A stretch of 34,346 bases of DNA, taken from contig CAKZLR010000018.1 of NCBI GenBank assembly GCA_937127165.1, positions 1-34,346 on the forward strand, given 5' to 3'. The notes beneath the pieces were generated by a model, which was given only the letters and a program-made list of their open reading frames with translations, searched no databases and was not told where the DNA came from. How positions within the stretch are numbered: position 1 is the first letter of the stretch; the number at the start of each line of letters is the position of its first letter. Positions 3,399 through 34,346 of this stretch are shown piece by piece. Made by a program: the position numbers and the translations under genes. The stretch comes from an uncultured Candidatus Peregrinibacteria bacterium (GTDB taxonomy: Bacteria; Patescibacteriota; JACMRA01).

Positions 3399-3894
3399 TG
3401 TTAACTTGATCTCTATACTAAGCTATGATGAAAATTTTAAGGTATTTTAATTATTTAGGTCAATTTTTGTCTACTACAATGGTATCGTGATTAGCCTGTA
3501 AAACAGGTTGGCAATTTGGATTCTTTCACTAAAACTTTAATAGTTCGTAAATTTGAGTGTATCTTTTTTGAAAGAAATGTGTGATACACTTAAAACTAAG
3601 TTTTAGATTTTTGTATATTTTTTGGTTGATTGTAATAGTTTTTTGTCAAATAACCTATTTAAACAATTTTTACTTAGTCTTAAATTTAAATAAGTTATCC
3701 TGAAATTTGTTCAATATTTTATTCGTTAAATTTCCAAATCCCCTCTTTCTGTTTATTTTCGTTTATTTTCCAAGTAAGAGTTTCCAGTCTTTTAAACCGT
3801 AGGTATTAGCGAAAAAGTAAAGTATTAAAAAACTATTAGTTTAACTTGCACAAAAATCAAAAATTATTTCTTAATCTTAATTAAGATATTTTTT

Positions 3895-5784: not shown

Positions 5785-6570
5785 CCATATTAGAACTGAA
5801 CTACTTGTGTTTATTTTAACTTTAAGTACTAAGAAAAAACTTAGGAAAAAATTTACTAGAAGTACTATCAGTGGAGAATATAGTTTACATTTTTTAATTT
5901 TGACAAAGTTACTTAGTGACTGTAGTTAGTTTATTAAAGGTAGCTTATTTTGTCTTTTTTTATCAAAAAAAATTACAAGAATAATCATACGTTAATTTAT
6001 ACTTTTTTATCTTAATAAAATTACTTTTGTAAGAATTAGTTGAATTACATTTTCAAAGATAATAACAACATTTATGTAAGCAACTAAGTCTAGTATAAGG
6101 TATCGTAAATTTTCGAAAATATTAGATTAAAAGTTGTTGAAGATGAAGAACTTAAATTTGGAGACAAAATTTTGGAGATTCTCATCTTTCACTTATAGGG
6201 TTGAAACTAGAAAAAAATTGTAGAAATTGCTCAGATACTTACTGGGAAGTTAATAAGTGGAAATATGAAGCAAAAATCATTGAAATATTAATGAGTGAAG
6301 CAAGTGATTATGAAAACGAGTTGTACGATAGAGGGTAGAGAGTAAAATGTGGAAATTCTACAAAGTATAGAAAATAACTTTATACTCAAAATAAAAAATA
6401 AGGCTGGAGAAGTCAGAAGTCTTTACAAAGATTTTTATTAAATTTTAGTAATTAAATTTACTTTTTTATTCAACTTTTTAGTTCAATTTTACATATCATT
6501 AGAAATTTTAGAAGAGTTTAACCTAATCAGTTTAGGTCATAAATTATAAAAATTTTAACTTTTGGGTTTT

Positions 6571-7206
6571 ATGTGTCGTTTTTTATTGTTAAAATCTAAA
6601 GATGTTGTAGAGATTAATGTTTTTTTACATAAATTTGCGATTATGTGCTACCATAGTAAATGTCTTGACGGTGACGACCAGGGCGATGGTTGGGGGTTTT
6701 CTTATTTAGATCAAAATAAAAGATGGCAGACTTATCTTTCTTTAGAGCCAGTATGGGAAGATGTGCCTAAGTTGAAGAAAAAAATCTTAACTACTCATTT
6801 AGTGGCGCACGCTAGAAGTGCTAGTTTTGAAAACCAAAAAGGTATAATAGAATACAATCAACCATTTGTTTTTGAGAACTTTGTATTTGTTTTTAACGGT
6901 TTACTAAAGGGTGTAAGATTACCTGAGATAGTTCCAGGTAGAATAGGGTCTCAAAAAATTTTTAACCTTTTTATAAAATACATACGAAGCGGTGCTACTG
7001 CTCAAACAGCTCTAAAAGAAACCGTGGATTTACTAAAAAACCACTGCACTTTTGTACAAGCTCTCAATATTGGAATATGTGACGGGCAAAACTTGTACTA
7101 TCATAACGAGTATGATCCTAATACTGGGGAATATTACCAATTACAATTTTACGAAAATGAGCAGTTACAAATAATTTGTTCAGAAAAATTAGAAGGTTTT
7201 GGCTAG
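6571..7206 (+). CDS. Class II glutamine amidotransferase-like Ntn-hydrolase (YafJ/EgtC-like)
   Basis: Start moved to ATG 6571 to give MCRFL with the N-terminal nucleophile Cys; DGWG, AHARSAS, NQPF, FVFNG, CSE motifs. Confidence 0.85.
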   Translation: MCRFLLLKSKDVVEINVFLHKFAIMCYHSKCLDGDDQGDGWGFSYLDQNKRWQTYLSLEPVWEDVPKLKKKILTTHLVAHARSASFENQKGIIEYNQPFVFENFVFVFNGLLKGVRLPEIVPGRIGSQKIFNLFIKYIRSGATAQTALKETVDLLKNHCTFVQALNIGICDGQNLYYHNEYDPNTGEYYQLQFYENEQLQIICSEKLEGFG

Positions 7207-7407
7207 AACAGTTTAAATTTAAAAGTTATTTTTAAGTTATCTTAAAACTCCATAAATAAACTAACCTGAAGTAATCTAAACGGGCATTAGTGGGGAAATA
7301 TAGATAAGATTAATCTAAGTATAAATTTTTTTGATTTAAAATTGAAGTTAGGTTGAAAGAGAATTACCTAAAAACCTAAAAAAGTATTTGTTTGAACAAG
7401 AGTTTAA

Positions 7408-7788
7408 TTATCGTTTTTTTAAAAAACTATCGTATTTCTGTTTTTGTGGGTCTTTGTTAAGAAAGTAAGGAAATCTTCGAGTTCGTATATTTTGAGAAAA
7501 GATTCCTTTTTGTCTTTGAAACTGCTTATTTCTCTTTAAGAAGAGTGTTAATCCAAACAGACTAGCAAATAGAGAAAACAAAACTCCGAAGATAGCAAAA
7601 GGAAAAGGTAGTACTGGCGATTTAGGTGGTGATATTGGAGGCGAATTGTTTACTTTTGATCGGTTGAGAATGTTTGCAGTTCTAAGTTTAAATTGATTTG
7701 TGGGAATTTTGTCTTTTTTGAAGGTAGCATAAATAAAACCAAACATTCCAAGCAAAGAAGTAATAACTAAGATAATTATATAAGCCAT
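7408..7788 (-). CDS. Hypothetical small membrane protein (2 TM segments, Pro-rich linker, basic tail)
   Basis: 126-aa ORF with two hydrophobic stretches; no family recognised. Confidence 0.5.
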   Translation of the reverse strand: MAYIIILVITSLLGMFGFIYATFKKDKIPTNQFKLRTANILNRSKVNNSPPISPPKSPVLPFPFAIFGVLFSLFASLFGLTLFLKRNKQFQRQKGIFSQNIRTRRFPYFLNKDPQKQKYDSFLKKR

Positions 7789-7800
7789 GTATATTATGAT

Positions 7801-7839
7801 AATCTAGTTTTTCTTATTTCAATCTAGTTTTTCTTATTT
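7801..7839. repeat. Tandem duplication with 20-bp period (AATCTAGTTTTTCTTATTT x2)
   Basis: 7801-7819 is identical to 7821-7839. Confidence 0.9.
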
Positions 7840-7870
7840 ATCTATCTAATGCTTGTGTTTGGTTATTAGA

Positions 7871-7946
7871 TGGTGGATCCGGTGGGGATCGAACCCACGA
7901 CCAATGGCTTAAAAGGCCACTGCTCTACCGACTGAGCTACAGATCC
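7871..7946 (-). tRNA. tRNA-Lys(TTT), CCA encoded
   Basis: Reverse complement GGATCTGTAGCTCAGTCGGTAGAGCAGTGGCCTTTTAAGCCATTGGTCGTGGGTTCGATCCCCACCGGATCCACCA; cloverleaf with anticodon loop CTTTTAA. Confidence 0.97.
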
Positions 7947-8285
7947 TAAAACACTCAGGTGTGGTTAACTAAAAATAGACAATTGTCAAGTGTTGGTTGA
8001 AGAAGTATGTTTTTTGTTTCACTTCATGTTACCAACATTGATTGTATTAAGTATTAAAATAACTATAAGAAAGTTTAGTTTATATAGATAGTATACATTA
8101 TATTTTTGTTTTTGTATTAGTATTAAAGTTCACCAAATATCCATTTTTGATAATTTATGAGTCAGTTTCATAAGGTTTTAATCGCAAAATAGTCAACATT
8201 AAGTTGTTGTAAAATACTTTTTACTTATGATACAAGTTCTATTTTTAGTTAACACCAACATATACTTACTATAAAGAATTTTTGT

Positions 8286-8603
8286 TTATTTTACCGCAAA
8301 TTTAATTTCTAAATTATGTTTTGGATTTTTTTCTGGGGGGTTTAGGACTTTTTGAAATTCGTTTTCTAAGTCTTGGAAGTTAATTTTAAGAATTGATAGA
8401 ATAGTAGGATCGGTGCTAGTTATTTTAATAGTGATAGTTTTGGAGCTGCTTTTAACAAAAATATTAGCACTTGATTCAGATAATTGAAGATTGGTTTTAG
8501 CAAAATCCCAAAAAACAGCATTAACCAGCTTAAAAATATAAGCCTCGTGCCACAATCTATATTTTTTGGTACGCATTAAAGTTTGTCTTAGATTTCCGAA
8601 CAT
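8286..8603 (-). CDS. Hypothetical protein, possibly DciA/DUF721-like
   Basis: ATG at 8603 (MFGNLRQTL); size and pattern (W, TITIKITS.DP, long helix, IKF end) resemble DUF721. Confidence 0.45.
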   Translation of the reverse strand: MFGNLRQTLMRTKKYRLWHEAYIFKLVNAVFWDFAKTNLQLSESSANIFVKSSSKTITIKITSTDPTILSILKINFQDLENEFQKVLNPPEKNPKHNLEIKFAVK

Positions 8604-8648
8604 TTTGACAAAAAACTTTTTTATAGTAAAAAAACCCAATTAGATTAT

Positions 8649-9119
8649 ATGCTGCAAATAGTCAAATATCCTGACCCTATTTTAGAATCTGAATGTCAAG
8701 AAGTTGCTTTTCCTTTGAGCGAGGAAGATAAAGAGCTTATTGCAGATATGATTGCCACCATGGACTCTGTCCAGGGTGCTGGACTAGCGGCCAACCAAGT
8801 AGGGGTAAGTAAAAAAATTTGTGTTATCAAAATGATCAAAAAACACAAAAGGGTAAAAACCGAAAATTTAGTCTTAATCAATCCAAAAATAATTATGGAG
8901 AGTGCTGTCAGGTGTCTTTTTCCTGAAGGATGTTTGAGTTTGCCCGGTAAGTATTATTACGTAGAAAGGCCTTGTAATATTATTGTTCAGTATCAAGACG
9001 AAAATGGCAAAATTAGAAAACTACAAGCTAACAAATTTTTATCTAGTCAGATTCAACACGAAGTTGATCATTTGTATGGAATTTTTTACACTTCTAAAGC
9101 TAGAGAAGAGATTAAATAG
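8649..9119 (+). CDS. def: Peptide deformylase
   Basis: GAGLAANQVG, EGCLS and QHEVDHL motifs. Confidence 0.97.
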   Translation: MLQIVKYPDPILESECQEVAFPLSEEDKELIADMIATMDSVQGAGLAANQVGVSKKICVIKMIKKHKRVKTENLVLINPKIIMESAVRCLFPEGCLSLPGKYYYVERPCNIIVQYQDENGKIRKLQANKFLSSQIQHEVDHLYGIFYTSKAREEIK

Positions 9120-9230
9120 GATGAACTAACCGAGACTAACTCTTGATTTTTAGGGTTTTGTCTTTTGAGTCGTTTTTTGTATTTTTTCTAAAATTTAGTT
9201 TTTTGAAATTGGTTTGCGGTGCTTCATTTT

Positions 9231-10481
9231 TTAATCTAAATCGTTATTTGAGTTTTTTGATGGAATAAATTTGGTTGCTAAAAGAGTGGTAATAGGTACA
9301 GCCAACAATAGACCCACGCTACCTCCCATAGTTCTAACTACTTCTTCTATAATCATTTCATTGTTAAGAATAATCCACAGTGGGTTACCGGTGCCAATGG
9401 TTAGCAATAACATCAAAGGTAAAGCTCCGCCAGCATACACCAAGGCCAAAGTGTTGACCATTGAGACTACATGTTCTTTACCTACATTCATAGCTCTCCA
9501 AAAAAGCTCTAAACCACTAAGTTTTGGATTAGCTTTGTGAATTTCTTCAACAATAGCAGCTTGGGTCGTGGCTACATCGTCCAAAATTCCGATGGTACCA
9601 ATGATTATTCCAGCTAGCAAAATACCTTGTATATTTAAGTAATTGTTTAGTTTGTTTGAAATTAAATAGAAAGCTTCGTCACTGCCAATTCCTGACAGTC
9701 TAGTCAGGCCAACAGCCCAAATAGAGAATAAGGTTACGACCAAAATAGTTATCATGATGGAGACTATGGAAATAGTAGATTTTTTGTTGAAACCGTGTGA
9801 AAGATAGGTAGAAACTAAAACAATTATTAAGCTACTGACAAAGGTTATCCAGTATATATTAGCTCCTCCTATTACTTGGGGTAAGAAAAACAGCACCAAT
9901 ACGATAATACTAAAAGTCAATCCTAAAAAAGAGCTTAAACCTTTGAAACCAGATAAAAGTACAACTAAAAGAATAAAGATAAATATTAAATATATGACAA
10001 AATCGATTCTATAAAAATCAGCAAAACTATAAGTTGGTTCCCTTTGACTATCTCCAAAATCTAATTCCCTGACTATAATAGCCGAACCAACTTTAAGTGG
10101 TTCAAGGGTGCTATAAGTAAACACTTCAATATTCACTACTTTACCTTTCTTTGGCCCCTCAACCAGTTCTACTTCAACATTTTGTTGGGTCATATTTATC
10201 CCTAATGGACTCGGTTGAGACTCTCTGGTAATCTCGCTTTTGACTATACCTTTATAAAAATTAATACTGGGCAAGTTTTGACCTTCAAATACAACTTGTT
10301 GCTGAGTGACTCGTCTTTCTTGATCTTTTTGGAGAGTGTTTTGAGCGATGGGGCTAAGAATAGCAAAACTCGTAAGTACGATAAGCAAAGCTAGCAACAA
10401 AGTTAGCAAATTTTTGATTAGTCTAGCTTTTGGAGAATCTGTATTTTGATTTGTCAAAAAGTTTACAAATTTAGACATCAT
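9231..10481 (-). CDS. YibE/F family membrane protein
   Basis: DFYR, multiple TM helices, IGTIGILDDV, VGKEHVVSMVNTLALVYAGGALPL, EVVRTMGGSVGL motifs. Confidence 0.9.
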   Translation of the reverse strand: MMSKFVNFLTNQNTDSPKARLIKNLLTLLLALLIVLTSFAILSPIAQNTLQKDQERRVTQQQVVFEGQNLPSINFYKGIVKSEITRESQPSPLGINMTQQNVEVELVEGPKKGKVVNIEVFTYSTLEPLKVGSAIIVRELDFGDSQREPTYSFADFYRIDFVIYLIFIFILLVVLLSGFKGLSSFLGLTFSIIVLVLFFLPQVIGGANIYWITFVSSLIIVLVSTYLSHGFNKKSTISIVSIMITILVVTLFSIWAVGLTRLSGIGSDEAFYLISNKLNNYLNIQGILLAGIIIGTIGILDDVATTQAAIVEEIHKANPKLSGLELFWRAMNVGKEHVVSMVNTLALVYAGGALPLMLLLTIGTGNPLWIILNNEMIIEEVVRTMGGSVGLLLAVPITTLLATKFIPSKNSNNDLD

Positions 10482-10845
10482 CTTCTATGAAGAATTAGTG
10501 TTATGTAACAATTTTTGTAAAGAGATTTTGAAGTTGAAGCAAGTTTTTTATATTATATTTTAGAGATACTATCCTTTTACAATTTTTATTTTTACAATTT
10601 AATTATTTAATTTTAAAGTTTAGATAAAATTAACTTATAAGACTAAATGGTTCACAACCAAATTAAAAAACCTCTTAAAATTCTTCTCTTAAGGAGTGTT
10701 AACTGTGTTGTTTGGGTTAGTTTGTTAGAATTTGAAGTAGATTTAACATTTTTTACTACAAAAAGTGAGTTATAAACATAAAAACTTGACTAAAAGCCAG
10801 TCCTTGTTTACTAGTTCTACTTAGACAAGAAACTAAGTTAAAACT

Positions 10846-11769
10846 ATGTTATTCGTTTTTTTCAGCTTTTTAGCTACTTTGCTGTTTGGTTTTAGCTTGT
10901 TATTGCTTGTAAATTATGCTCTTGTTGATTGGGAAAAAAATCGGGTTGAGGACTTAGCAAGACAAATCAGACAGCAAGATAGTGTGTCTAATACAAATAA
11001 TATCCTAAGTAAGACTGTTTCTAGTCATAGATTTACTAATGTGGATCTGAAAGACAATTTAAGATCAAGAATTACCCGTCAATCTATTAGTGAGACTGCC
11101 AGTCAAATTTATACAAAAACTATAACTACTATAAAAAATCAAGACTATGCAGGCTGGTGGCAAAAAATAGTTCAAGAGTTTAATAGACTAAAGCAGGATT
11201 GGTTAGGAACTGTTAAAAGTTGGTTAAAATTTTTGATTAGTTTAGCCAGATCCGTAGACGAGAATGAAAAAACAGCAAATCAGATAGACACAGAAAAAGA
11301 AAAAAATCAAATTGCTCACGTAGTTGAGAAAGTTAAAGGGAATAGCCAAATTTATGACCAGTCGAAACCTAGTTTGAATTATATTATTAACGATGCTGCC
11401 AGTACTTTTGAACTGGTAGGCGGGTCTTCTCAGACTCAAACACCCTCTCAATCTACATTTCAAACACCTTCTGTTTTAGAAGATAAGCCCAAAGAACGAC
11501 AACAAGATCCTGCTACTATTGCTCTTGGAGCAGCTTTTGATAAACCTAAAACGGACAAAGATATGACTCAGTTTGAAAAAATAGAAAGAAAGATATTAGA
11601 TAGGCTTCAAGAATCTGGACTAAAAGATTATGATATTTGGTTACAACTTGGTGATTTTTACTTAAAATACGACGAGAAAGAAAAAGCTAAAGAAATATAT
11701 GCTTTGGTGCTAAAGCAAGCTGATGGAGAACAGAAAGAAATAGCTCGCAACCGTTTAATTAGTTTCTAA
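10846..11769 (+). CDS. Membrane-anchored protein with low-complexity linker and C-terminal TPR/FimV-C-like domain
   Basis: N-terminal TM helix; S/Q/T-rich linker; C-terminus WLQLGDFYLKYDEKEKAKEIYALVLKQADGEQKEIARNRL. Confidence 0.6.
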   Translation: MLFVFFSFLATLLFGFSLLLLVNYALVDWEKNRVEDLARQIRQQDSVSNTNNILSKTVSSHRFTNVDLKDNLRSRITRQSISETASQIYTKTITTIKNQDYAGWWQKIVQEFNRLKQDWLGTVKSWLKFLISLARSVDENEKTANQIDTEKEKNQIAHVVEKVKGNSQIYDQSKPSLNYIINDAASTFELVGGSSQTQTPSQSTFQTPSVLEDKPKERQQDPATIALGAAFDKPKTDKDMTQFEKIERKILDRLQESGLKDYDIWLQLGDFYLKYDEKEKAKEIYALVLKQADGEQKEIARNRLISF

Positions 11770-13203: not shown

Positions 13204-15156
13204 TTATTTTGAAACTGAATTAAGTATAATATGGTTTTCTATTTTGTTCAAGTTATTTTCGTCAATTTGTTCAACTATTTCTGGTCTTATTTCTTGCACA
13301 CAACTTGGTGCGGCTCTCAAAGAGCCACTAATAAATTGCAGAATCGCTTTGATAGGTAAGTTGATGTGCTCATATTTAGCATACTCTAGTTTTTCTGATA
13401 AAAATCTAGGTTCAATATTGTTGATTAAGATAAAGTTAATCAGCTCTAAGAACAGATCTAAAGTGTTTTGTAAATCTGGTGGTAAATCTCTACCTTTAAG
13501 AGATACAATCCTAGGACCCCTTGCATCATATGTAATCGTGAGCAACATATCCCCATAATCAGTAGTTTTAAGTAGCTGTTCTAATTTTAGCACATACTTA
13601 GATAAAGAACCTAAGTTAGTTGCCAAAATTTCAGGTTTGTATTGGTGATGAGTGGTGTTTGGGGTTATTTGATAGTTTTCTGGTGGAAGTTTAGATTCTA
13701 ATTCCTGTTGTTTTTTAATAGCTTGCTTAAGAGTATTTTGTAATTCTAAAATGATAGAGCGTTGAGAACTGGCCTTTTGAATCAAAATTTGTATATATTG
13801 AGGCAATTCTTTTGAATCTAAATCGACCCATTCAAGCTTATTACTATTTGCAAAATATTTAGAGTCTATTAAAAACCCTAAGTGTAAAGTGGATTCTTTT
13901 GTTTCTTTAATTTCTGTTGTAGAAACCAAACTAGAAGTAACAGTGCCATAGAAATCAAAATATTCGTTCAGAAAGCTTTGTAAAACCTCTTCAGATTCTT
14001 TATTTTCTTTAAAATTGGTTGATGGAAGCTTAATCACACCTTCAGACCGTTTGTCAATAGCTATCAAATTCTTATTAAAATTTATTATCAGAGCATTCAA
14101 AACTATTTGTGATTTTGGCTCTATTGTTGATTTTTCTCGTTGGTTGATTGTAGCTAAAAGATCTGACAATTCGACAACTGACAACTCATTTTCGTTCCAT
14201 AATTTTTCTTCAGTTTCTTTATTTCCGTCAGTTAATCTATAAAGAGTTTGATTTTTTTCTGGTTGGACATCAATATCAACCACTTGTAAAATTTTAGATT
14301 GACCATCAATTGTTACTCTAACAAGTTCACCAATTTGAAACATCGGTTCATCTATCTTAGGTAGATCGGTTTTGGTAATTACAGGGTGATTATCGTCTTG
14401 TGAAGAAGTAAATTGTGTAGTATCAATAGTGGTTGGGGGTGAGTATTGATCTCTATCACTCCAAACTTGCCAAGGTTGACTTTGAGGGAAAAGTAAAATA
14501 CTACTATTCCTTCTAGGAATTAATTCGAAGGGGCTTTGTAGGATTGTATTTTGGTCAAAAATCTTATAGAGATCTGTACCATTTTTAATTTCTCCTGTGT
14601 TTTTGTTATACCAAAACTCGAAAGATTTTGGTCTAAGGTGTTTTTTAATTTTTTCCCAGGCCAAGCAAGGACCTTTTTCTTCGGCTAACGATTCACTGGC
14701 TCGATAGGCTTTATTACTAATGAAGTTACCAATATAATTAATTATATCTAACTCGTTGATATGTTTGTTTTGTTCTAGAAAATCATCAAAATCAGCTATT
14801 CCAATAGCAATTTTTCGATATTGAGCGACTACAGCCAAAGCCTCAGGACTAAATTGAATTTTATCAAGTAAGGCATCCAAAAATCTAACAGCTGTCTCGA
14901 TTGTATCTTGTAAGAGACTTTCATCCAAAGCTTTTTGATTATCTAAATATTTACACAGTAGGATATCTCCATATGTGGTAGCAGGTTTAGTTTGGGTTTT
15001 GTCCTGATATAAAAGCTCTAATGTCTTGTTGCTAACAACAAAAAGTCTTCTGGCGTGTAATACTTCTGTATATTTCTTCTCCCAAAATTTTCTCAATTCC
15101 GGAGTACTCTCAGTTTCCGCTGCCAACTTAAGCAGTCTTTCCAAGACAGATGACAT
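13204..15156 (-). CDS. Degenerate class II ribonucleotide-reductase-like multidomain protein (RNR remnant, SH3-like, pseudo-Nudix, coiled coil, TSCPD-like)
   Basis: TAVRFLDALLD, YRKIAIGIAD, AYRASESLAEEKGP and RRN match the NrdJ/NrdA barrel C-terminal part; no NPCxE finger loop. Confidence 0.7.
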   Translation of the reverse strand: MSSVLERLLKLAAETESTPELRKFWEKKYTEVLHARRLFVVSNKTLELLYQDKTQTKPATTYGDILLCKYLDNQKALDESLLQDTIETAVRFLDALLDKIQFSPEALAVVAQYRKIAIGIADFDDFLEQNKHINELDIINYIGNFISNKAYRASESLAEEKGPCLAWEKIKKHLRPKSFEFWYNKNTGEIKNGTDLYKIFDQNTILQSPFELIPRRNSSILLFPQSQPWQVWSDRDQYSPPTTIDTTQFTSSQDDNHPVITKTDLPKIDEPMFQIGELVRVTIDGQSKILQVVDIDVQPEKNQTLYRLTDGNKETEEKLWNENELSVVELSDLLATINQREKSTIEPKSQIVLNALIINFNKNLIAIDKRSEGVIKLPSTNFKENKESEEVLQSFLNEYFDFYGTVTSSLVSTTEIKETKESTLHLGFLIDSKYFANSNKLEWVDLDSKELPQYIQILIQKASSQRSIILELQNTLKQAIKKQQELESKLPPENYQITPNTTHHQYKPEILATNLGSLSKYVLKLEQLLKTTDYGDMLLTITYDARGPRIVSLKGRDLPPDLQNTLDLFLELINFILINNIEPRFLSEKLEYAKYEHINLPIKAILQFISGSLRAAPSCVQEIRPEIVEQIDENNLNKIENHIILNSVSK

Positions 15157-16360: not shown

Positions 16361-19300
16361 TTAGTTATTTAAAAAATTAATTTTGGATTGTTGTTGATCT
16401 AACTCTTGTTTTCTTTGCAAAAGTTGTTGTCGTTTTTCAGTCACCACCTCAGGGTCGGCATTTTGTACAAAATTGGGATTTTGTAATTGGTTTTGTAAAA
16501 ACTCAATTTGAGTTTCCAAGTCTTTTATAATTTTGTTAGTTCTGTTAACTTCAGTTTGCTTGTTTGGGATATAAGCTAGAATATCCAAAGAGTATTCATA
16601 ACCCTCTTTTTGAACACTATACAATCCCTGCTTTTGTTCTGGTACTATCTCGCTTCTGGTTGTTATCTGGATAAACTTACTGTATTTATTAAGCAATACT
16701 GATTGGGAATATACTTGAATTGATTTGGCAGGATCAATAGCAAACAAACCTCGAGTGGAACGGAGATCTTGAATAAATCTAATAATTGCAGCAAACTCTT
16801 CAGCTTGAACCTGACTATTAGGGTTTTTTGACCACAACTGGCGGTACTGCTCATTTCTCTCGAGAGCAAAAGCTAAAAGGCTTGTTTGGCCAAAAAATTC
16901 CGACCACAAAACTTCTGTTTCAAAAGGTATAAACGGTGAAACTGTGATGATAAATTGCTGAAATAGACTTTTTGCAAAAGCAACCTGTGTTTCGTCTGTT
17001 TTTAGATACTCAATATACCAATCAGCAAAATTGTCCCACAAAAAGCCATACAAAACATCAACCGAGTGAGCTAGTTCGTAGTTTTGTAGATTATGCTCTA
17101 AGTTATCTTGTAAATCTAAATATTTTTGCAAAATCCACCACGAAGCGGAGGCTAGTGATTCTGGTGATAAAAATATTTCGTTTGATACTGGGTTTGTTTT
17201 TAAGAAGGTAGATTTAGGTTTTTCTAGAGCTGTTGTAACTTTTTCTTGCCAATTTCCACTTTTGAATTCTAAAAAACGAGCAACATTCCAAATTTTATTA
17301 CCAAAGTTCCGGTATTTCTCCATTAAACGATCGGCTAAATTACCACCAAATCGCATATTTCTTCCCGGAATCATACCACTCAGCATTGATAGTCTAAGGG
17401 AGTCACTAGAAAATTTAGCGATAGCTTCTCCGGGCTCTAAACCATTTTTCAAAGACTTACTCATTTTACGACCTTTTTCATCCAAAATAGTAGGAGTAAT
17501 TACTAGATTTTCAAAGGGAACACGATTAGTAAAATATTTACCCAAAGTGATCATTCTAACTATCCATAAATAAAAAATCTCTTTGGCCGTAACCATGGTT
17601 TGGGTTGGGTAAAATTCTTCAAAATCAACTTTTTTAGCCAAATTTTGTTCCATTAGTTGGTTGTTAAACTCAGTTCTAAAATTAGTAGAAAATTTGTTTA
17701 GCACAAACTCAATACTTTCTTCAAATCCATTAATTATTTTGCCTTTAACATCTTTTAAATCGACCCACTTAGTAGTTTGATAATCCGCGCAAACACCCTC
17801 TTTTTCGGACTCAGTTTCTACATAGAAAAGATTAGATTCAAGTCGAATGTTTTGCAATTCGTTATTTTTGTAAAAATTGAATCCAAGAAAAATTTTACCT
17901 ACAAAATCCAACTTAGTTATTTCGTTCCTACTTATACCGGTTTCTTCTTCAAATTCTCTTAAAAGGGTTTTTTGAGCAGTTTCACCAAGCTCTAACTTAC
18001 CACCAACTAAATGATATTCAGCTTTTTCTTCACTCACATTTCTGAGTATATCCCAGTTTATTTTGGGAAATAGTAGTTTTTTGGTTTTAGGATTATAAAT
18101 AATTGCATGAGCCCCAAACCGGTTTTGGAAATGCTGGTCCAAACTAATATATTTGGAAAAAGTATAAAAGTAGTTACTATATAAAATATAGTCTTCAATT
18201 TCGGGAAAATGTGGGATATTGAAATGAGCTCGATTATCAAAAATAAACCGCTTGCTGGTTGGCAACCGAGATATTATTTGATTAAATTGCTCAAACGGAA
18301 CAATCTGATCGTCGGTGGAGTGATAGACAAAAATTTGCTCACAGTTTTCTTTGATTAAATCAAGTTCGGTTTGAATCTCAAAAGTATAAGCATCAGTGCA
18401 AGCTGCCACCAAATGAAGTTGCTTCACTTTGAGAGAGTTTTCGGATAGATATTTGAGTAAAAAGTTACCACCAAGACTGTGACCAACTAAAAATAGTTCA
18501 TTTTCTGGATCAATTTGAGCAATATATTTTTCAAACCAAATCTTCCAAGCTTCATAATTGGCATTTTGTTTGTTTGGCATTTGTGGGTAAAACACTTCTA
18601 TTCCAGCACTGGAGAGTTTGGTAAACAAGTTGATTTTCCAGTCGATTTTTTGCTGGCGAATGTCTATCTCTCTTTGCTTCAGCTCCTCCAGCATTTCTTG
18701 GTCAGTTTTAAAAGCATCTCCACCACCAACTATTACTACAGTTTTTTGAGGTTTAACTGTTTCCACGAAATCCAAAGTAGATAGCGGCCAAAGCGAGGAT
18801 GAAAACCAAGTATCTAAAATTTTGCTTTCTTGTACCCAGTTTCCAGGTAAATCAGGCTTATTTGGACTAACTTGGAATTTGTGCCTAATTTCAGGATTTT
18901 TCAACCACTCTTGATAACTAAAAAATTTTTTTTCTGGATTGGTGTCTAAATTATACCACACAGGAATTTTATGACCCCAGGTAAGATCTCGAGAAATACA
19001 CCAATCAAGAACATTTTGGATAAAATTTTGACCTCTTTGTCTAAATTCACTAGGATAAAAATTAACCTCATCTAAACCTTTAAGGGTTAGTTTTTGTAAG
19101 TTGGTTTTTTTGCTAAACAACTTGTGAATATCCTCAAACTTGTCCAGAATTTGACTTTCTGGTAGTATTTCAAGTAATTTATCTTTACCTGCCCAGCCCC
19201 AGCTGCAACCAATAATTTTGGTTTTGTCCATAAAGTTCTGTAATTCAATCACATCATCTTTAGTGTCAGTAAAATAGTAAACTTGTGTGGGAGATATACC

Positions 19301-19924
19301 CCAATCTTTACAAACTTGAGTGATTTTTTCCTCCTTGGAGTGGTTATCCTCTCTACCTAAAATGTGAGTGAAGTTTAACTTACAATTTCTGATTTTCGGT
19401 AAAATTAACAACTCTTTTGAAGAACTAGAAACAATTGCAAGTCTTGTGTTTGAGATTTTAGCAATTTCGTTAACGAACCCTTCAAATAGACAAAACTCTT
19501 TATTAGCCATGTACCTTATAAAATTCCAACTGGCAACAGCCTGCTGTTCAAACTCTTCTTGGCTCAGTCCATGATTTTTATGATGTCTGGGTTTATCAAA
19601 ATATTCATCTCTCATTTCCTTAGCTTTTTTGTAGTCACCACCGGCTCTCAGCTCAGCCCAACAAGCTAAATTAGCTTCGTCGGAATCGGCTAGTACTCCG
19701 TCATAATCAAAAATTAAATACTTAGTTTCTGCACACGAAGAATGATCAAACTCTTTGTGGTAGCTGAGAAAAAATTCATCACTAATCAACGGTTCAATAA
19801 CTGTTTTGGATCTTTCACAAATAGACACATTATGTTCATAGTTCCAGTCCACTTGGAATTGTGTAAACCGTTCTTTTAATTCAGAAACCCTTTTTTGATA
19901 GTCTGCCTCGCTAAAGTTATTCAT
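16361..19924 (-). CDS. valS: Valine--tRNA ligase, C-terminal half only, with inserted HAD, alpha/beta-hydrolase and Nudix domains
   Basis: HNVSICERSKTVIEPLIS, DWCISRDLTWGHKIPVWY, LDTWFSSSLWP, FYPT, KMSKS, NKIWN, anticodon domain, C-terminal coiled coil (LQNPNFVQNA); no HIGH motif or CP1 editing core. Confidence 0.88.
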   Translation of the reverse strand: MNNFSEADYQKRVSELKERFTQFQVDWNYEHNVSICERSKTVIEPLISDEFFLSYHKEFDHSSCAETKYLIFDYDGVLADSDEANLACWAELRAGGDYKKAKEMRDEYFDKPRHHKNHGLSQEEFEQQAVASWNFIRYMANKEFCLFEGFVNEIAKISNTRLAIVSSSSKELLILPKIRNCKLNFTHILGREDNHSKEEKITQVCKDWGISPTQVYYFTDTKDDVIELQNFMDKTKIIGCSWGWAGKDKLLEILPESQILDKFEDIHKLFSKKTNLQKLTLKGLDEVNFYPSEFRQRGQNFIQNVLDWCISRDLTWGHKIPVWYNLDTNPEKKFFSYQEWLKNPEIRHKFQVSPNKPDLPGNWVQESKILDTWFSSSLWPLSTLDFVETVKPQKTVVIVGGGDAFKTDQEMLEELKQREIDIRQQKIDWKINLFTKLSSAGIEVFYPQMPNKQNANYEAWKIWFEKYIAQIDPENELFLVGHSLGGNFLLKYLSENSLKVKQLHLVAACTDAYTFEIQTELDLIKENCEQIFVYHSTDDQIVPFEQFNQIISRLPTSKRFIFDNRAHFNIPHFPEIEDYILYSNYFYTFSKYISLDQHFQNRFGAHAIIYNPKTKKLLFPKINWDILRNVSEEKAEYHLVGGKLELGETAQKTLLREFEEETGISRNEITKLDFVGKIFLGFNFYKNNELQNIRLESNLFYVETESEKEGVCADYQTTKWVDLKDVKGKIINGFEESIEFVLNKFSTNFRTEFNNQLMEQNLAKKVDFEEFYPTQTMVTAKEIFYLWIVRMITLGKYFTNRVPFENLVITPTILDEKGRKMSKSLKNGLEPGEAIAKFSSDSLRLSMLSGMIPGRNMRFGGNLADRLMEKYRNFGNKIWNVARFLEFKSGNWQEKVTTALEKPKSTFLKTNPVSNEIFLSPESLASASWWILQKYLDLQDNLEHNLQNYELAHSVDVLYGFLWDNFADWYIEYLKTDETQVAFAKSLFQQFIITVSPFIPFETEVLWSEFFGQTSLLAFALERNEQYRQLWSKNPNSQVQAEEFAAIIRFIQDLRSTRGLFAIDPAKSIQVYSQSVLLNKYSKFIQITTRSEIVPEQKQGLYSVQKEGYEYSLDILAYIPNKQTEVNRTNKIIKDLETQIEFLQNQLQNPNFVQNADPEVVTEKRQQLLQRKQELDQQQSKINFLNN

Positions 19925-21450: not shown

Positions 21451-22770
21451 TTAAGATTCGACTTGGCTAATCAAAATTTTATTGATTTCAGGGAAGTCGG
21501 CAAGTCTTTGTTCACAGTTATTTATAAAGTGACTGGCAAAGTCGAGAATAGTTTGTTTTGAACGATAATTTTTGGTCAGGGTAATAATTTGGCATGTTGG
21601 ATATTTTTTTCTGAAATCTAAAATATTTTTTAAATAAGCTCCTTGAAATTTAAAAATTGACTGGTCATCATCTCCGACTACCATCAAGTTCGGTCTATTA
21701 TTAGTTAGTTTTGTGTCAACTAACATGTCAATAAGTTTAGTCTGCACACCACTAGTGTCTTGAAATTCGTCAACCAAAATATATAAAAACTGTTCTTGAT
21801 AATTGTATCTAAGCTCTTTGTAAGTTTCAAAAGCTTTTAACACTTCAAAAAGCATATCCTCAAAATCAAATAATTTAGACTGGTGCAAACCTTCTTGATA
21901 CTTTTTATAAATTCTAGCTAAAGAGCGGTATTTTTTATGGTTAAGGTCGGCTTTTAACCTATATTTTTTGTCTTCATCAACTTTACAAAAACTGTTTCTC
22001 CATGAAGTTAATTTAGTTGTTGAAGGATTTTGTTGAGCTTCAATTTCGTCCACAGTCTTTTGCAAACTCTCTATTACTAGTTTTTTAAGGCTATAATTTG
22101 GCTGTTTTTCGTCAAAGTTAATCTGTCTCAGGGGTTCAATCAAGTCTTGGCGAGCTTTTGATAGTAAAACTTTATTTATTTTCCCAACAAAAAAGTCTTT
22201 GATAATATTTCTAGCCTGAGAAATAAAAGTTTCGTTGTCGTCCAAAATTTGTTCAAAATCTTCGGGGGTTATACCTTCTTTTTTTAGATCCCTAATTCTA
22301 GATCTGATAGAGTCTAAATAAGTCCAACCTTCTTTAGAATTGTGTTGGTTGAGAGGATCATCATGGTCAAAAGTATTAAAAATACTTTGCAAAATTTCAA
22401 TTGAAGCTAAGTCATCAGCCGGCATATACTTAGCTCCGGAAAAAAAATATTCGGGGTTATGACTAATCACTTCGGTTCCAAAACTATGAAAAGTGTGAAT
22501 ATACACTTTGCTAGCCTGTGATCCAATAATCTTGATTAATCTTTCTCTCATATTTACAGCCGCTGAGTCTGTGAAAGTAAGACAAAGAATAGACTCTGGC
22601 AAAGTATCTGTTTCCCTGAGAATGTTGGCTACTCTCATGCTAAGTAATTCTGTTTTACCTGTCCCCGGACCAGCTACGACCATCACTGGACCATCGATTG
22701 TGTCAACGGCTTGTCTTTGTTCCGAGTTAAGCCGTTGATATTTTTGCCAGAAAATTCGGTTAAAATTCAT
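21451..22770 (-). CDS. UvrD/PcrA/Rep-family helicase, N-terminal half only (motifs Q to IV)
   Basis: LNSEQRQAV, AGPGTGKT, LTFT, TFHSF, DEFQD, VGDDDQSIFKFQGA, LTKNYRS; stops about 35 aa after motif IV, motifs V and VI absent. Confidence 0.88.
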   Translation of the reverse strand: MNFNRIFWQKYQRLNSEQRQAVDTIDGPVMVVAGPGTGKTELLSMRVANILRETDTLPESILCLTFTDSAAVNMRERLIKIIGSQASKVYIHTFHSFGTEVISHNPEYFFSGAKYMPADDLASIEILQSIFNTFDHDDPLNQHNSKEGWTYLDSIRSRIRDLKKEGITPEDFEQILDDNETFISQARNIIKDFFVGKINKVLLSKARQDLIEPLRQINFDEKQPNYSLKKLVIESLQKTVDEIEAQQNPSTTKLTSWRNSFCKVDEDKKYRLKADLNHKKYRSLARIYKKYQEGLHQSKLFDFEDMLFEVLKAFETYKELRYNYQEQFLYILVDEFQDTSGVQTKLIDMLVDTKLTNNRPNLMVVGDDDQSIFKFQGAYLKNILDFRKKYPTCQIITLTKNYRSKQTILDFASHFINNCEQRLADFPEINKILISQVES

Positions 22771-23201: not shown

Positions 23202-23870
23202 CTATTTACAACTAACATAACTCATAGACACTCTGTTAGATCGTGTAATCATAAAAAAATGATTTCAGCAATATCCTTAGGATGCATAAACTTTGAAGTA
23301 TCAATTTTTGTTTGATTATCTAGGTTTTTAAATAAATTTGTATTTGTAGTTGCAGGATAAAAACCCATTACACGAATATTGATTCTTTTTTCCAACCTTC
23401 CCTGAAACCAGATATTCCGTATTTATTACTCATATAAACAGACTCTCTTGGCTTACCATCATATGGTGTTCTACCGGCTGAAGATACATTAAGGATTGTA
23501 CCATAATTTTGTTCTTTGAAAGTTGGCAAAAATACTTGTGTCGTGTATATAGTACCCATTAGATTTATTCTAATCATTTTTTCTATATGATCAGGATTTT
23601 GTTTGTCTAGATCACCAGTGTAATACACACCCGCATTATTTATCAAAACATCAACATTACCAATTTCCTTACGAGCACTTTCTAATATCGGATAGAGGCG
23701 ATCAGCTTCATATTCTAAATTGTATTCTATATTTTTAAGATTTGGATGTGTTATATTAACAGTATTTCTGCTAAGATTAAAGACTAGCCACTGCCTTTTT
23801 AAACACTTTTTTACAACTTCTAGTCCAATTCCAGAACTACCCCCAGTGATAACAATTCTTTTAAAGAAGA
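23202..23870 (-). pseudogene. Short-chain dehydrogenase/reductase (SDR) pseudogene
   Basis: One frame reads KRIVITGGSSGIG...DVLINNAG...YMSNK but has no ATG/GTG/TTG upstream of the Rossmann motif; continues after a frameshift near 23385 (IRVMGFYPATTNTNLF...MHPKDIAEII) and a second shift at the homopolymer near 23255. Confidence 0.85.
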
Positions 23871-31610: not shown

Positions 31611-31620
31611 TCTGTTGCAT

Positions 31621-34346
31621 ATGAACCAAGACTCAAACCAAAATAATCAAGTTGACAATATTGAGACTCAATCTACCCATCCTTATAAGGATATCGAGAC
31701 TTATTGGCAGAAACTTTGGTTTGAAAATAACCTTTACCGGGCCGTTGATTTTGATGATCGTCCTAAAAAATATATTTTAACCGAATTTCCTTACCCATCG
31801 GGTGTTAGTTTGCATATTGGTCATGTTTTTCGTTATACAGTACCGGATGTATACGCTAGGTTTTTAAGAATGAATGGTTATAACGTGCTTTTTCCGATGG
31901 GTTGGGATGCTTTTGGTTTACCCACTGAGGAGCGAGCTAGGAAGGAAGGCAAGAATCCCAAGATCATCACTAAAGAAAACATTGCTAACTTTAAGCAACA
32001 AGTTCTGCGAATGGGTTATGGTTTTGACTGGGACAGAGAGTTTTCTACAACTGATGAAAATTATTACAAGTGGACTCAGTGGATTTTTGGCGAGTTTTAT
32101 AAAGCTGGTTTAGCCGAACAAAAAGAAACTGAAGTGTGGTGGTGTCCTGAAATGGGGACTGTGTTGTCTAACGAAGAGGTGTTAGATGGTCCAAATGGAA
32201 CCAAAATTAGTGAACGAGGTGAGTATCCGGTTTATCGCAAAAAGATGAAGCAGTGGGTTTTGAGGATGCCAGAATATGCCGAAAAATTACTTAGCGGTCT
32301 AGAAGAAACTCATTTTCCAGAACATGTTAAGGAGATGCAACGAAATTGGATTGGTAAAAGCGAAGGTTGCACGGTCAGATGGGAAGTAGAAACAACTACA
32401 AAAAGCAGAAAGCAGAAAGCAAAAATTGTAATTTTACACGGTTTTCGAGGTAGTTCCCAGAGTATTTATATTCCTTGGCTTAAATCTAGGTTAGAAGACT
32501 TTGGTTGTGAAGTAGTGGCTTTGGATTTGCCTAATTTTACAGATCCAGACGAACAAGAATGTGTTGATTTCGTTTTAAACTCAGTTAAATTTGGCAACAA
32601 CACAATCATTTTAGGTCATAGTCTTGGTTCTGTACTAGCCCTCAAAGTTTTAGAAAAACTAGATCAGCCGATTTTAGGTTTGGTTACCACTGGCGGCTTT
32701 GTGTCTCCAGACTTTTTGGACAAAAACATCAATGTGCGGCCGTTTACCCATAAGTGGAATTGGAATTTTGACTTTGCAAAAATCAAGGCGAATACCACTT
32801 TTGTTAAGTGTTTGCAATCTTCTTCTGATCCAGTTATTTCTACCGCTCAAGCTCAGGCTTTGGTGCAAGCTGTGGAAGGCGAGCTGATAATTGTGGAAGC
32901 TAAAGGACATTTTAGTGATCAGATTGAACCTAGTGTTTGGAGTGTCTTTGAGCAAGTTTTACGAAAGGAAGCACTCCACCTTACAAGCATCTCTCAAGAG
33001 GAAAGTTTGATAGTTGAAACCTTTACTACCCGAGTTGATACCATCTTTGCGGTTACTTTTTTGGTGTTGTCTCCCGAGCATCCTTTGGTTTTACAACTAA
33101 CTATCGAGGAAAACTTACCAAAGGTACGAGTTTATTTGCAAGAAGTGCAAAACAAAAGTGACCGAGAAAGACAAATTGGGGCTGAAAAAACTGGAGTCTT
33201 TACCGGGAGTTATGCTATTAATCCAATTACAAAAGATAAAGTGCCAATTTGGATTAGTGATTATGTACTTGGCAGTTACGGTACTGGAGCGATTATGGCG
33301 GTTCCGGGGCACGATGAGCGAGATTTTGAGTTTGCCCAAAAGTTTGGGCTGAAAATTTTAGAAAACGTAAAACCCATAAGTGGAGAAAAAACTAGCAAAG
33401 TTTTTACTGATTACGGCGTTTTATTTAACTCAGGAGAGTATTCCGGTTTAACCAGTGAGGAGGCTAAAGAAAAATTAATCCAAAAATTGGAAGCTGAAGG
33501 CAGAGGTAAGCGAGAAATCAATTATAAATTCCGTGATTGGGTCTTTAGCCGTCAGCGATATTGGGGTGAGCCATTTCCGTTTGAGTATATTAAGATTAAA
33601 GATGGTTTAGTAGATTTTGAGAAACTAGACGAACAACTAAAAAACTCAGGTCGGATTGGTGTCGTTAACTGTGTTGTTGTTAATTCCCAAGGTCAAATTT
33701 TGCTTCAAAGGAGATCGGCGACTTTTGACTTGATTGGCGGGCATATAGGGGAAGGTGAAACTATTTCGCAGGCGATGCAACGAAAGATTAAAGAAGAGAT
33801 TGGTTGTGATCTAGGTCAAGTTTTGTATTATTTAGGCTTTACTGAAATGAATCTTAGTGAGGATAATAAAAAACTGAATTTTGTTTTTATAGTTACAGTT
33901 AAACATGAGCCAAAGATTCAAAAACCAGAAAAAGTTAGTGAGATGATGTGGGTCAAGGCTGACCAGATTTTAAATTTTGTTGTTCCTCAGTCTCAATATA
34001 CAGTTTATTTTCCTAGCTGGCAACAAAAAGATTTTGTGAAAGAATTTATAGCACAAAATAGAGATTCTTATATTGTTGATGTTTTGTCACAGGCTTTTGA
34101 TTGGATAAACAAAAATTTTTCGGGGTTATCTTTGACCGAAATTGACGGCGAGCTCCATAAGATCAGACTTCTTGATACTACTGAACTACCTTTAATTTTG
34201 CCGGATGTAGAAGACTATTTGCCGTCACCAGAAGGCCGATCTCCTCTTGGCAAGGTAGATTGGATAAACATTCGAGATGAGCAGGGTAGGGTGATTGGTC
34301 GACGAGAACCAGACACCATGCCTAACTGGGCTGGAAGTAGTTGGTA
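31621..34346 (+). CDS. leuS: Leucine--tRNA ligase, runs off the window end, with inserted alpha/beta-hydrolase and Nudix domains
   Basis: Not in the ORF track (no stop in window). Manual translation: FPYPSGVSLHIGH, PMGWDAFGLP, YYKWTQWIF, MQRNWIGKSEG, FTTRVDTIF, YGTGAIMAVPGHDERD, RDWVFSRQRYWGEP, REPDTMPNWAGSSW. Confidence 0.97.
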   Translation, partial: MNQDSNQNNQVDNIETQSTHPYKDIETYWQKLWFENNLYRAVDFDDRPKKYILTEFPYPSGVSLHIGHVFRYTVPDVYARFLRMNGYNVLFPMGWDAFGLPTEERARKEGKNPKIITKENIANFKQQVLRMGYGFDWDREFSTTDENYYKWTQWIFGEFYKAGLAEQKETEVWWCPEMGTVLSNEEVLDGPNGTKISERGEYPVYRKKMKQWVLRMPEYAEKLLSGLEETHFPEHVKEMQRNWIGKSEGCTVRWEVETTTKSRKQKAKIVILHGFRGSSQSIYIPWLKSRLEDFGCEVVALDLPNFTDPDEQECVDFVLNSVKFGNNTIILGHSLGSVLALKVLEKLDQPILGLVTTGGFVSPDFLDKNINVRPFTHKWNWNFDFAKIKANTTFVKCLQSSSDPVISTAQAQALVQAVEGELIIVEAKGHFSDQIEPSVWSVFEQVLRKEALHLTSISQEESLIVETFTTRVDTIFAVTFLVLSPEHPLVLQLTIEENLPKVRVYLQEVQNKSDRERQIGAEKTGVFTGSYAINPITKDKVPIWISDYVLGSYGTGAIMAVPGHDERDFEFAQKFGLKILENVKPISGEKTSKVFTDYGVLFNSGEYSGLTSEEAKEKLIQKLEAEGRGKREINYKFRDWVFSRQRYWGEPFPFEYIKIKDGLVDFEKLDEQLKNSGRIGVVNCVVVNSQGQILLQRRSATFDLIGGHIGEGETISQAMQRKIKEEIGCDLGQVLYYLGFTEMNLSEDNKKLNFVFIVTVKHEPKIQKPEKVSEMMWVKADQILNFVVPQSQYTVYFPSWQQKDFVKEFIAQNRDSYIVDVLSQAFDWINKNFSGLSLTEIDGELHKIRLLDTTELPLILPDVEDYLPSPEGRSPLGKVDWINIRDEQGRVIGRREPDTMPNWAGSSW

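Follow-up and report, generated by a model that had tools for sequence, protein, structure and literature searches.

A predicted split valyl-tRNA synthetase carrying three nested hydrolase domains in a Candidatus Peregrinibacteria bacterium

Aminoacyl-tRNA synthetases are among the most conserved proteins. Three kinds of departure from a plain class Ia synthetase are known separately, namely an enzyme made of two subunits, a nested hydrolase such as the CP1 domain, and a synthetase with an extra enzyme domain. A natural example of the first is the leucyl-tRNA synthetase (LeuRS) of Aquifex aeolicus, according to the passage of PMC2377443 that cites Xu et al. 2002. A literature search, outside of which lay subscription journals and bioRxiv supplements, returned no description of a split valyl-tRNA synthetase (ValRS), of the inserts reported here or of nesting across a lineage; the automatic JGI name 'valyl-tRNA synthetase/predicted alpha/beta hydrolase family esterase' indicates that pipelines have met such proteins. 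Here, we analyze the open reading frame (ORF) 16361..19924 on the minus strand of contig CAKZLR010000018.1 (assembly GCA_937127165.1, an uncultured Candidatus Peregrinibacteria bacterium with a small genome, one of the Patescibacteria, or CPR), whose 34,346 nucleotides are called the window. From its sequence, this ORF appears to encode the C-terminal subunit of a ValRS split into two genes, with the HIGH signature in the other gene of the pair, and we give a probability of about 0.7 to the joint claim that this ValRS is a heterodimer and that its three passengers are active enzymes in their own right.

The ORF comprises 1187 codons and a stop codon and is free of internal stops under table 11, the chance of a frame staying open over that length being about 1e-40 by a hand estimate at 33% GC (33-35% in the DNA around the ORF). 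It has its own ATG, preceded by an AT-rich spacer of about 210 nucleotides, and the genes upstream, a 166-residue ORF and GrpE, are unrelated. The start is located about 25 residues ahead of ERSKTVIEPLISDEFF, which is the strand following the CP1 editing domain. In a Pfam scan of the protein, the best stretch of the class I synthetase core PF00133 is profile 184-320 of 414, and the C-terminal part matches Anticodon_1 (residues 930-1071, E 3.1e-16) and Val_tRNA-synt_C (residues 1124-1177, E 9e-8). A first-pass annotation made from the letters alone had read the ORF as a multienzyme synthetase with intact ValRS motifs. KMSKS, DWCISR (residues 307-312) and DTWFSS (residues 371-376) are present and align to the Thermus thermophilus ValRS structure (PDB code: 1GAX), but the HIGH signature and the CP1 editing domain are absent from the ORF by both sequence reading and Pfam. 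This reading is supported in part. The nested domains are complete, but the ORF would be a C-terminal subunit instead of a whole ValRS, and the label of multienzyme synthetase points to a functional unit proper to ValRS, whereas the passenger families are also nested in unrelated proteins.

The missing half was found in the same genome (68 contigs, 84% complete). A search with PF00133 assigns profile 183-404 to the window ORF and profile 22-182 to an ORF of 387 residues on contig C28, which has its own start and stop and unrelated flanking genes. This N piece carries the HIGH signature as PPPNLTGELHAGH, and its CP1 editing domain contains VSTVRPETIFGD along with the editing motif GTGALKITPGSD, the editing motifs being conserved in all eight N pieces compared. 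The best NCBIfam family of both pieces is valS, covered without overlap from 3 to 326 of 860 by the N piece (291 bits) and from about 330 to 858 by the C piece. The remaining class I matches of the genome are IleRS, MetRS and LeuRS, so that the N/C pair is the only ValRS found there. Moreover, the split appears to be conserved in relatives: a stop codon is located 1-12 codons ahead of the same ATG in the orthologous loci L029, L030, L031 and L033, the examined flanks of these four loci contain no N piece (0/4), and seven stand-alone N pieces of 390-400 residues, with 51-73% identity, share the same end point.

Of the Rossmann fold, the first half, which bears HIGH, would come from the N piece together with the CP1 editing domain. 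The C piece would contribute the strand that follows CP1, the second Rossmann half, which bears KMSKS, an anticodon-binding domain and a coiled-coil arm, and both pieces would join non-covalently into one active site. A complex model of the N piece with residues 1-392 of the C piece reached an ipSAE of 0.77, against 0.00 for the best of three controls, with a contact agreement between runs of at least 95% and a partner pLDDT of at least 84; in the calibration, the ipSAE mark was met by 58 of 80 solved complexes and by 2 of 110 mismatched pairs. The confident contacts listed involve residues 4-61 and 276-388, most of the predicted interface being formed by the first core segment, cA (Table 1), and no HAD residue is named, residues without a name being simply uncertain. 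Since a single-chain ValRS is solved (1GAX), this result expresses likeness to a known fold, which the model may have learned from that structure, and is not proof of binding.

Inserted material makes up 587 of the 1187 residues (49%), as residues 59-275 and 393-762 in two loops at the surface of the C piece, in agreement with the first estimate of about half. By sequence and models, the three inserts are complete, well-folded enzyme domains. The first matches HAD_2 over residues 70-226 (E 1.8e-10, 41.7 bits against a cut-off of 23.8) and contains HAD motifs I-IV as D73/D75 (DYDG), S166, K197 and D220/D224. Its AlphaFold model (residues 55-285, built on 30 sequences, pLDDT 89.5) resembles in Foldseek the HAD-IA phosphatases with a helical cap, SP0104 (PDB code: 2ah5), 3mc1 and 2hdo, these with a target TM of 0.67-0.71, and Gph-like enzymes; no PDB sequence match was obtained for this insert at E <= 0.01. 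Across the 30 sequences D73, K197, D220 and D224 are invariant and D75 is conserved in at least 90%, S166 not being flagged.

For the second insert, hmmscan of the protein against Pfam gives weak alpha/beta-hydrolase matches, among them Ser_hydrolase (PF06821) over residues 453-569 (E 0.0018, 18.6 bits for a cut-off of 22), a family that scores 22.3 bits in a six-frame search of the genome. The call of a serine hydrolase is secured by PDB sequence matches to RBBP9 (E 1.2e-5) and YdeN (E 0.009), by the AlphaFold model of residues 385-765 (69 sequences, pLDDT 87.3, pTM 0.80) and by Foldseek against the PDB, where the top matches are human RBBP9 (7oex, 2qs9 and 9fcr) and Bacillus subtilis YdeN (1uxo), with a target TM of 0.74-0.78. 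Its motifs are GHSLGG (S483), D538/D539 and H567, and the Ser-Asp-His triad is conserved in at least 90% across the 69 sequences. The third insert matches NUDIX over residues 603-726 (E 1.9e-10, 41.3 bits against a cut-off of 21.1), and its canonical Nudix box, from G642 to I664, reads in succession G642, KLELG, E648, TAQKTLL, R656, E657, F, E, E660, E661, T, G663 and I664. Folds similar to this domain in Foldseek are those of small MutT-like enzymes and include RppH, Ap6A hydrolases and, with a target TM of 0.71-0.76, NudI, MutT and Ap4A hydrolase, the best PDB sequence match spans the Nudix box alone, and no Nudix subfamily stands out among the sequence and fold matches. Also, ESM Atlas matches are generic, with an '8-oxo-dGTP diphosphatase family' protein of 158 residues and a 'HAD family hydrolase' of 206 residues.

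Pfam, AlphaFold and Foldseek agree that the three hydrolase domains proposed at first are real and complete; the HAD motifs, the triad and the Nudix box had been read correctly, and the residue and nucleotide coordinates of the domains convert into each other as given. Each insert would form an independent globule that projects from the synthetase core and works as an enzyme in its own right, the HAD as a phospho-aspartyl phosphatase, the second insert as a Ser-Asp-His hydrolase and the Nudix as a Mg-dependent pyrophosphohydrolase. All three would ride on the expression of an essential gene.

Table 1. Features of the window, with the predicted ValRS subunit and its segments first (aa, amino acids of the ORF; nt, nucleotides)
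Feature	Positions	Strand	Basis
Predicted ValRS C-terminal subunit gene	16361..19924	-	NCBIfam valS PRK05729, main match profile 460-858, 337 bits
Core segment cA, aa 1-58, post-CP1 strand returning to the Rossmann fold, ERSKTVIEPLISDEFF	19751..19924	-	
Insert 1, aa 59-275, predicted complete HAD-IA phosphatase	19100..19750	-	Pfam HAD_2, model, Foldseek
Core segment cB, aa 276-392, DWCISR and DTWFSSSLWPLSTL	18749..19099	-	T. thermophilus ValRS alignment
Insert 2a, aa 393-590, predicted RBBP9/YdeN-type serine hydrolase	18155..18748	-	PDB sequence matches, AlphaFold, Foldseek
Insert 2b, aa 596-752, predicted MutT-like Nudix hydrolase	17669..18139	-	Pfam NUDIX, Foldseek
Core segment cC, aa 763-900, second Rossmann half with KMSKS (aa 820-824, nt 17453-17467)	17225..17638	-	
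Core segment cD, aa 921-1187, anticodon-binding domain and C-terminal coiled-coil arm	16364..17164	-	Pfam
LeuRS, 3' end off the window	31615..34344	+	Ser_hydrolase aa 271-440 and NUDIX aa 683-788 (Pfam); NCBIfam leuS_bact, 604.9 bits
tRNA gene	1989-2062	-	Rfam RF00005, 73.3 bits
tRNA gene	7874-7946	-	Rfam RF00005, 75.5 bits

Alignment to the T. thermophilus ValRS places the inserts at the two loops named in the first-pass annotation. Residues 278-391 of the window protein correspond to residues 368-474 and residue 766 onward to residue 474 onward, so that the site of the hydrolase and Nudix domains (site 2) is the short loop 469-474 (WPEETE). This loop is located between DTWFSS (W456) and the strand bearing I491 and W495 in T. 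thermophilus numbering, three residues that line the valine pocket. The site of the HAD domain (site 1) is located between the EPxxSxxWF strand, after EPLISDEFF, and the helix preceding DWCISR. In relatives free of inserts, a median of about 7 residues separates the core segments at each site.

Four further proteins have the same start, the same three inserts and the same sites, with identities of 82% (P0002), 70% (P0003), 56% (P0004) and 59% (P0005). In all five orthologues, the HAD residues D73, D75, S166, K197, D220 and D224, the hydrolase residues S483, D538/D539 and H567 and the Nudix residues G642, E648, R656, E657, E660, E661 and G663 are invariant. The ratio of nonsynonymous to synonymous substitutions (dN/dS, Nei-Gojobori) between the window and L029 is 0.072 for the HAD, 0.077 for the hydrolase, 0.185 for the Nudix and 0.093 for the ValRS core, values that are approximate because dS is 0.6-1.3 and near saturation. 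Between L030 and L033 it is 0.053 for the HAD, 0.107 for the hydrolase and 0.061 for the core, the Nudix being outside of the overlap; between L030 and L032 (dS about 0.08), it is 0.141 for the hydrolase, 0.287 for the Nudix and 0.187 for the core, the HAD being too short. Inserts and core have similar dN/dS values, and the inserts are thus as constrained as the synthetase, in line with the intact-looking domains first described. A reading as decayed enzymes, in which the inserts would have lost catalysis and would now be structural spacers or interaction modules, could appeal to the somewhat faster evolution of the Nudix domain (dN/dS 0.185-0.287), although nothing supports it directly. However, both this constraint and the invariant catalytic residues, most of which are also conserved in at least 90% of the wider HAD and hydrolase alignments, make it very improbable, as does the fact that neither the HAD subfamily nor the hydrolase subfamily of the inserts has a free member in the own genome.

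It could also be argued that the architecture is an artefact, be it a chimeric assembly, a frameshifted pseudogene or a different genetic code, since the source genome is fragmented into its 68 contigs and the sole public DNA run found contains 0.06 of the sampled words. This run gave five contigs of 151-232 nucleotides with 90-99% likeness, none of which extends across a domain junction by at least 31 letters in each direction, and no RNA run was found to contain the window sequence. Nevertheless, the same architecture and junctions are present in five independent metagenome contigs (L029, L030, L031, L032 and L033, 56-82% identity), which excludes a chimeric assembly, and the same architecture is present in proteins of other sources. 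Together with a frame that is open under table 11 and inserts that are under purifying selection, this leaves an artefact with hardly any credibility. Two further candidates were rejected. Against an intein, no Hint or intein family is found in Pfam, the junction residues vary in the five orthologues (SSCAETK, PSCTETK, PSTKETQ and PSSQETK), and free-standing enzymes match the inserts over their full length. Against an alternative genetic code, table 11 leaves the frames open, and the TAA and TAG codons that lie in frame at the ValRS locus of G025, a genome from another family of the same order, fall between ORFs with their own starts.

The identity of the inserts was surveyed in 122 ValRS relatives (the best 120 of 1923 matches and two cluster members), a ranking biased toward insert-bearing proteins because the query includes the inserts. 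Site 2 is occupied in 67 of them (the hydrolase in 47, a Nudix in 8, both in 5) and site 1 in 26, with a close HAD in 7. A site within segment cB is filled in 7/122 and another, between the KMSKS region and the anticodon-binding domain, in 5/122; two or more sites are occupied in 15, and 33 relatives have no insert longer than 80 residues. Segment cA is kept in 122 of 122 mapped relatives, and the gene is split ahead of it in 7. The anticodon-binding part is lacking in 47 and is encoded by these relatives as a separate ORF of about 270 residues. A fourth insert, a second Nudix at about residues 960-1120 between the KMSKS region and the anticodon-binding domain, is present in P0003, a position where the window protein has about 30 extra residues only. 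Other domains found in ValRS relatives by precomputed Pfam labels are GNAT (PF13302, PF00583), Vsr-like (PF04480) and Ham1. By these counts, the ValRS of this lineage is an insertion platform. In 15 genomes of other families of the phylum, ValRS matches are in frames of 721-966 residues.

Two observations on these relatives stand apart. The same precomputed labels locate the Vsr-like PF04480 in P0065, P0070, P0077, P0079, P0086, P0107, P0108 and P0118, which would fit a mobile origin of some inserts. Also, at L034 the two matches to the N part of ValRS (1586-1900 and 3610-4422) lie about 1.7 kb apart, the interruption coming after about residue 110, and the ValRS proteins P0007, P0032 and P0035 begin past that point; this gap and the late starts suggest a further split or insertion site behind HIGH.

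The nesting habit is not confined to ValRS. The LeuRS of the window contains a Ser_hydrolase ahead of its editing domain and a NUDIX after it, both only distant paralogues of the ValRS inserts. Large frames account for 4 of 5 NUDIX, 3 of 3 HAD_2 and 2 of 2 Ser_hydrolase matches in the own genome, the hosts being ValRS, LeuRS, CarB and EngA. For example, CarB, the large chain of carbamoyl-phosphate synthase, has 1593 residues with a HAD (residues 688-867) and a Nudix (residues 1008-1120; L138:2135-6913 (-), contig C23), and EngA/Der has 877 residues with two HAD domains between its GTPase domains (L139:2028-4658 (+), contig C13). When the own genome was queried with the three ValRS insert sequences, no other copy was found, a result bounded by sensitivity because the family models did find divergent copies. 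Given those copies in LeuRS, CarB and EngA, the term sole copy is valid only for the close subfamilies. In the family census, which covered 26 genomes and 13 large frames with these domains, all 13 are hosts of this kind, such as LeuRS (4) and EngA (4), with CTP synthase, a polynucleotide phosphorylase (PNPase) piece, GMP synthase, a class II synthetase and AlaRS once each. In L130-L133, the passengers are a HAD between the halves of CTP synthase, a HAD in the PNPase piece and a Nudix in both GMP synthase and the class II synthetase; the inserts of CTP synthase (L130) and of one LeuRS (L134) were seen by tblastn only. One LeuRS of 1598 residues carries two Nudix, a Ham1 and a HAD, the AlaRS (L135:962-3901 (+); protein P0271) has a nested guanylate kinase, Ham1 and Ser_hydrolase, and P0284 is a nucleotidyltransferase of the CCA-adding type with the same hydrolase at its C-terminus. 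The same three families nested in unrelated essential proteins favor a general passenger habit over a dedicated function in ValRS, and autonomous passenger enzymes are the best-supported reading of the inserts as far as sequence can tell.

A different possibility is that the inserts serve aminoacylation itself. In this case, the RBBP9-like domain would hydrolyze aminoacyl esters at the tRNA 3' end, as an extra proofreading activity or as a D-aminoacyl-tRNA deacylase replacing Dtd, the Nudix would clear adenylylated by-products such as Ap4A, and the HAD would handle a phosphorylated product. In favor of such a role, site 2 is located between two elements of the valine pocket. According to passages of PMC8866121, the amino acids with which human RBBP9 builds acyl-enzymes are single and hydrophobic and need a free alpha-amine, and amide, ester or thioester bonds to them are its likely targets; a title cited in PMC7730578 reports RBBP9 as an enzyme that activates valacyclovir, an L-valyl ester. 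However, the residues that bind the amine in RBBP9 are not evidently kept in the phmmer alignment, where Glu108 falls on a gap, Ser76 on Leu484 and Tyr99 on Cys509, and the CP1 editing domain of the N piece retains its conserved motifs, so that a second editing site is not needed.

The genomic distribution of the hydrolase is also two-sided. Thirteen of its best 150 matches are long (at least 377 residues), and nine of these are tRNA 3'-end enzymes, namely six ValRS, one LeuRS piece, one AlaRS and one of the CCA-adding type; the other four are a HAD fusion (P0272), a Ham1 fusion (P0374) and two proteins with no identified partner domain (P0267 and P0365). Within the family, the hydrolase is also present in LeuRS and AlaRS, and Dtd (PF02580) is found in 0 of the 26 genomes (64-93% complete) whereas Pth (PF01195) is found in all 26. 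On the other hand, the hydrolase subfamily is present in just 16 of the 26 genomes at E <= 1e-10 and is mostly free-standing. Among the neighbors of the 70 free hydrolase genes, no conserved or translation-related partner was found; the largest neighbor cluster covers 8 of the 70 loci, and the neighbors include an ABC ATPase, a short-chain dehydrogenase, a second Ser_hydrolase, a PIF1 helicase, FtsX, EPSP synthase and ROK. Moreover, EngA, CarB, CTP synthase and GMP synthase are hosts of HAD and Nudix domains too. Altogether, a role of the inserts in aminoacylation seems unlikely.

Some points nonetheless weigh against the preferred reading of a heterodimeric ValRS with three autonomous passengers, the near saturation of dS mentioned above being one of them. 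With 337 bits for the C piece and 291 for the N piece, both stay under the 704 bits that NCBIfam sets as the cut-off of valS, and a second, unsplit ValRS could exist because the genome is 84% complete. The examined hosts of the hydrolase are almost only tRNA 3'-end enzymes, which fits a role coupled to aminoacylation better than pure hitch-hiking. Also, in the genome G018, two tandem free Nudix ORFs (155 and 159 residues) share the strand of an insert-free valS and directly precede it (L141:5400-6344 (-), C3), an arrangement that hints at a functional link and likewise speaks for the coupled role. These two ORFs are the closest free relatives of the window Nudix insert, with 39-40% identity.

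Free-standing counterparts of the passengers are common. Free HAD, hydrolase and Nudix ORFs exist in the family genomes, and the hydrolase has no ValRS flanks in 70 of 70 metagenome loci (L035-L104), with ORFs of 193-244 residues in the 68 that were measured. Among the 26 family genomes, it is embedded in ValRS in 7, free in 8 and in other hosts in 3, with both embedded and free forms in G009. In the hydrolase tree (ABH), constructed from the best 150 of 1062 matches, 132 of which are free-standing, the ValRS-embedded copies need 6 changes by parsimony and well-supported branches force only 1, which is compatible with a single as well as a multiple capture by ValRS.

An interleaved state of the locus is observed in G025, where ValRS consists of three co-linear ORFs with their own starts (L140, G025:C25:26000-37000, minus strand 2404-10860). 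These encode 402 residues (profile 2-184 and the editing domain), 207 residues (profile 181-318) and 436 residues (profile 317-405, the anticodon-binding domain and the arm). Eight small ORFs are interleaved overall. Two are located between pieces 1 and 2, and site 2, between pieces 2 and 3 (profile 318/317), is filled with separate ORFs: a 372-residue ORF, a partial Nudix, a frame of 100 residues, a HAD-like ORF (tblastn only), a HAD and a Ham1-like ORF. In several cases, just one in-frame stop codon, TAA or TAG, stands between neighboring ORFs. The cistron boundaries of G025 are the domain boundaries of the window protein, from which we infer that small genes settle inside hosts whose pieces still assemble. 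The loss or gain of stop codons would then move a locus among interleaved, split and nested states, in one direction or the other. The window gene would probably stem from a split-tolerant host gene whose pieces received small genes by insertion or had them fused in between, and the order of the events leading to the nested state is our inference.

A more ambitious proposal joins these elements: the hydrolase would be an in-cis aminoacyl-tRNA deacylase of a lineage without Dtd, repeatedly welded into ValRS, LeuRS, AlaRS and the CCA-adding enzyme, and the whole lineage would follow a cycle of insertion, split and refusion. In such a cycle, small genes of nucleotide housekeeping, encoding HAD, Nudix, Ham1 and guanylate kinase, would insert into essential genes that use NTPs, the insertion would split the host gene into pieces that still assemble, and these pieces would later be fused again into nested multi-enzyme polypeptides. 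We consider this combination doubtful.

Elsewhere in the window, an ORF of 650 residues (13204-15156 (-)) contains a partial ribonucleotide reductase barrel (profile 209-357 of 523, residues 42-185) and about 460 residues without a match, and it may be another gene in pieces. A UvrD-like ORF (21451-22770 (-)) has the N-terminal helicase domain only, and the 1.6-kb stretch upstream of it has no ORF longer than 92 residues; by reading alone, fragments of 92 and 48 residues (23249-23646 (-)) look like remnants of a short-chain dehydrogenase.

If the preferred reading of autonomous passengers is correct, two genes would share one catalytic fold, and foreign enzymes of about 590 residues in total would interrupt it, although it is still under strong purifying selection. 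Two loops of the class Ia Rossmann fold would be shown to tolerate very large insertions, which is useful for engineering, and a natural split ValRS would be one more class Ia synthetase assembled from the products of two genes. In the own genome, HAD, Nudix and Ser-hydrolase genes exist for the most part only as domains inside essential proteins, a habit so far unrecognised for this CPR lineage. For annotation, this implies that function calls made per gene miss nested enzymes and that calls of a 'partial' synthetase mislead, with effects on metabolic reconstruction. Moreover, the link of RBBP9/YdeN to tRNA 3'-end enzymes suggests a directly testable function for an orphan family.

Finally, the locus can be compared with the systems that are closest to it. 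As in the alpha-beta LeuRS of A. aeolicus, two genes would give one class Ia enzyme of the Ile/Leu/Val group. However, the window ValRS is split directly after CP1, at PF00133 profile 182/183, whereas the Aquifex LeuRS is split nearer KMSKS, and the Aquifex subunits have no nested enzymes whereas the C piece of the window has three. The CP1 domain of ValRS, IleRS and LeuRS offers a precedent within the same enzymes for a hydrolytic domain nested in a loop of the Rossmann fold, but CP1 is an ancient domain that the whole group shares and that serves editing alone, whereas the window inserts have unrelated folds, are specific to the lineage, vary among genera and have free-standing counterparts. 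A curated class Ia synthetase with an extra enzyme domain is also known in NCBIfam NF040702 (isoleucine--tRNA ligase, N-acetyltransferase domain-containing), although both host and passenger are different there, and the window protein scores 41.9 bits against a model cut-off of 1999. Regarding the passengers, the serine hydrolase shares with RBBP9 and YdeN the fold, a size of about 190 residues, the GxSxG nucleophile elbow and the Ser-Asp-His order, but with an identity of 20-22% and, unlike them, embedded in a synthetase. The other two inserts have the canonical motifs and folds of MutT-type Nudix and HAD-IA Gph-like enzymes, a likeness that reaches the level of the family and not that of subfamily or substrate.

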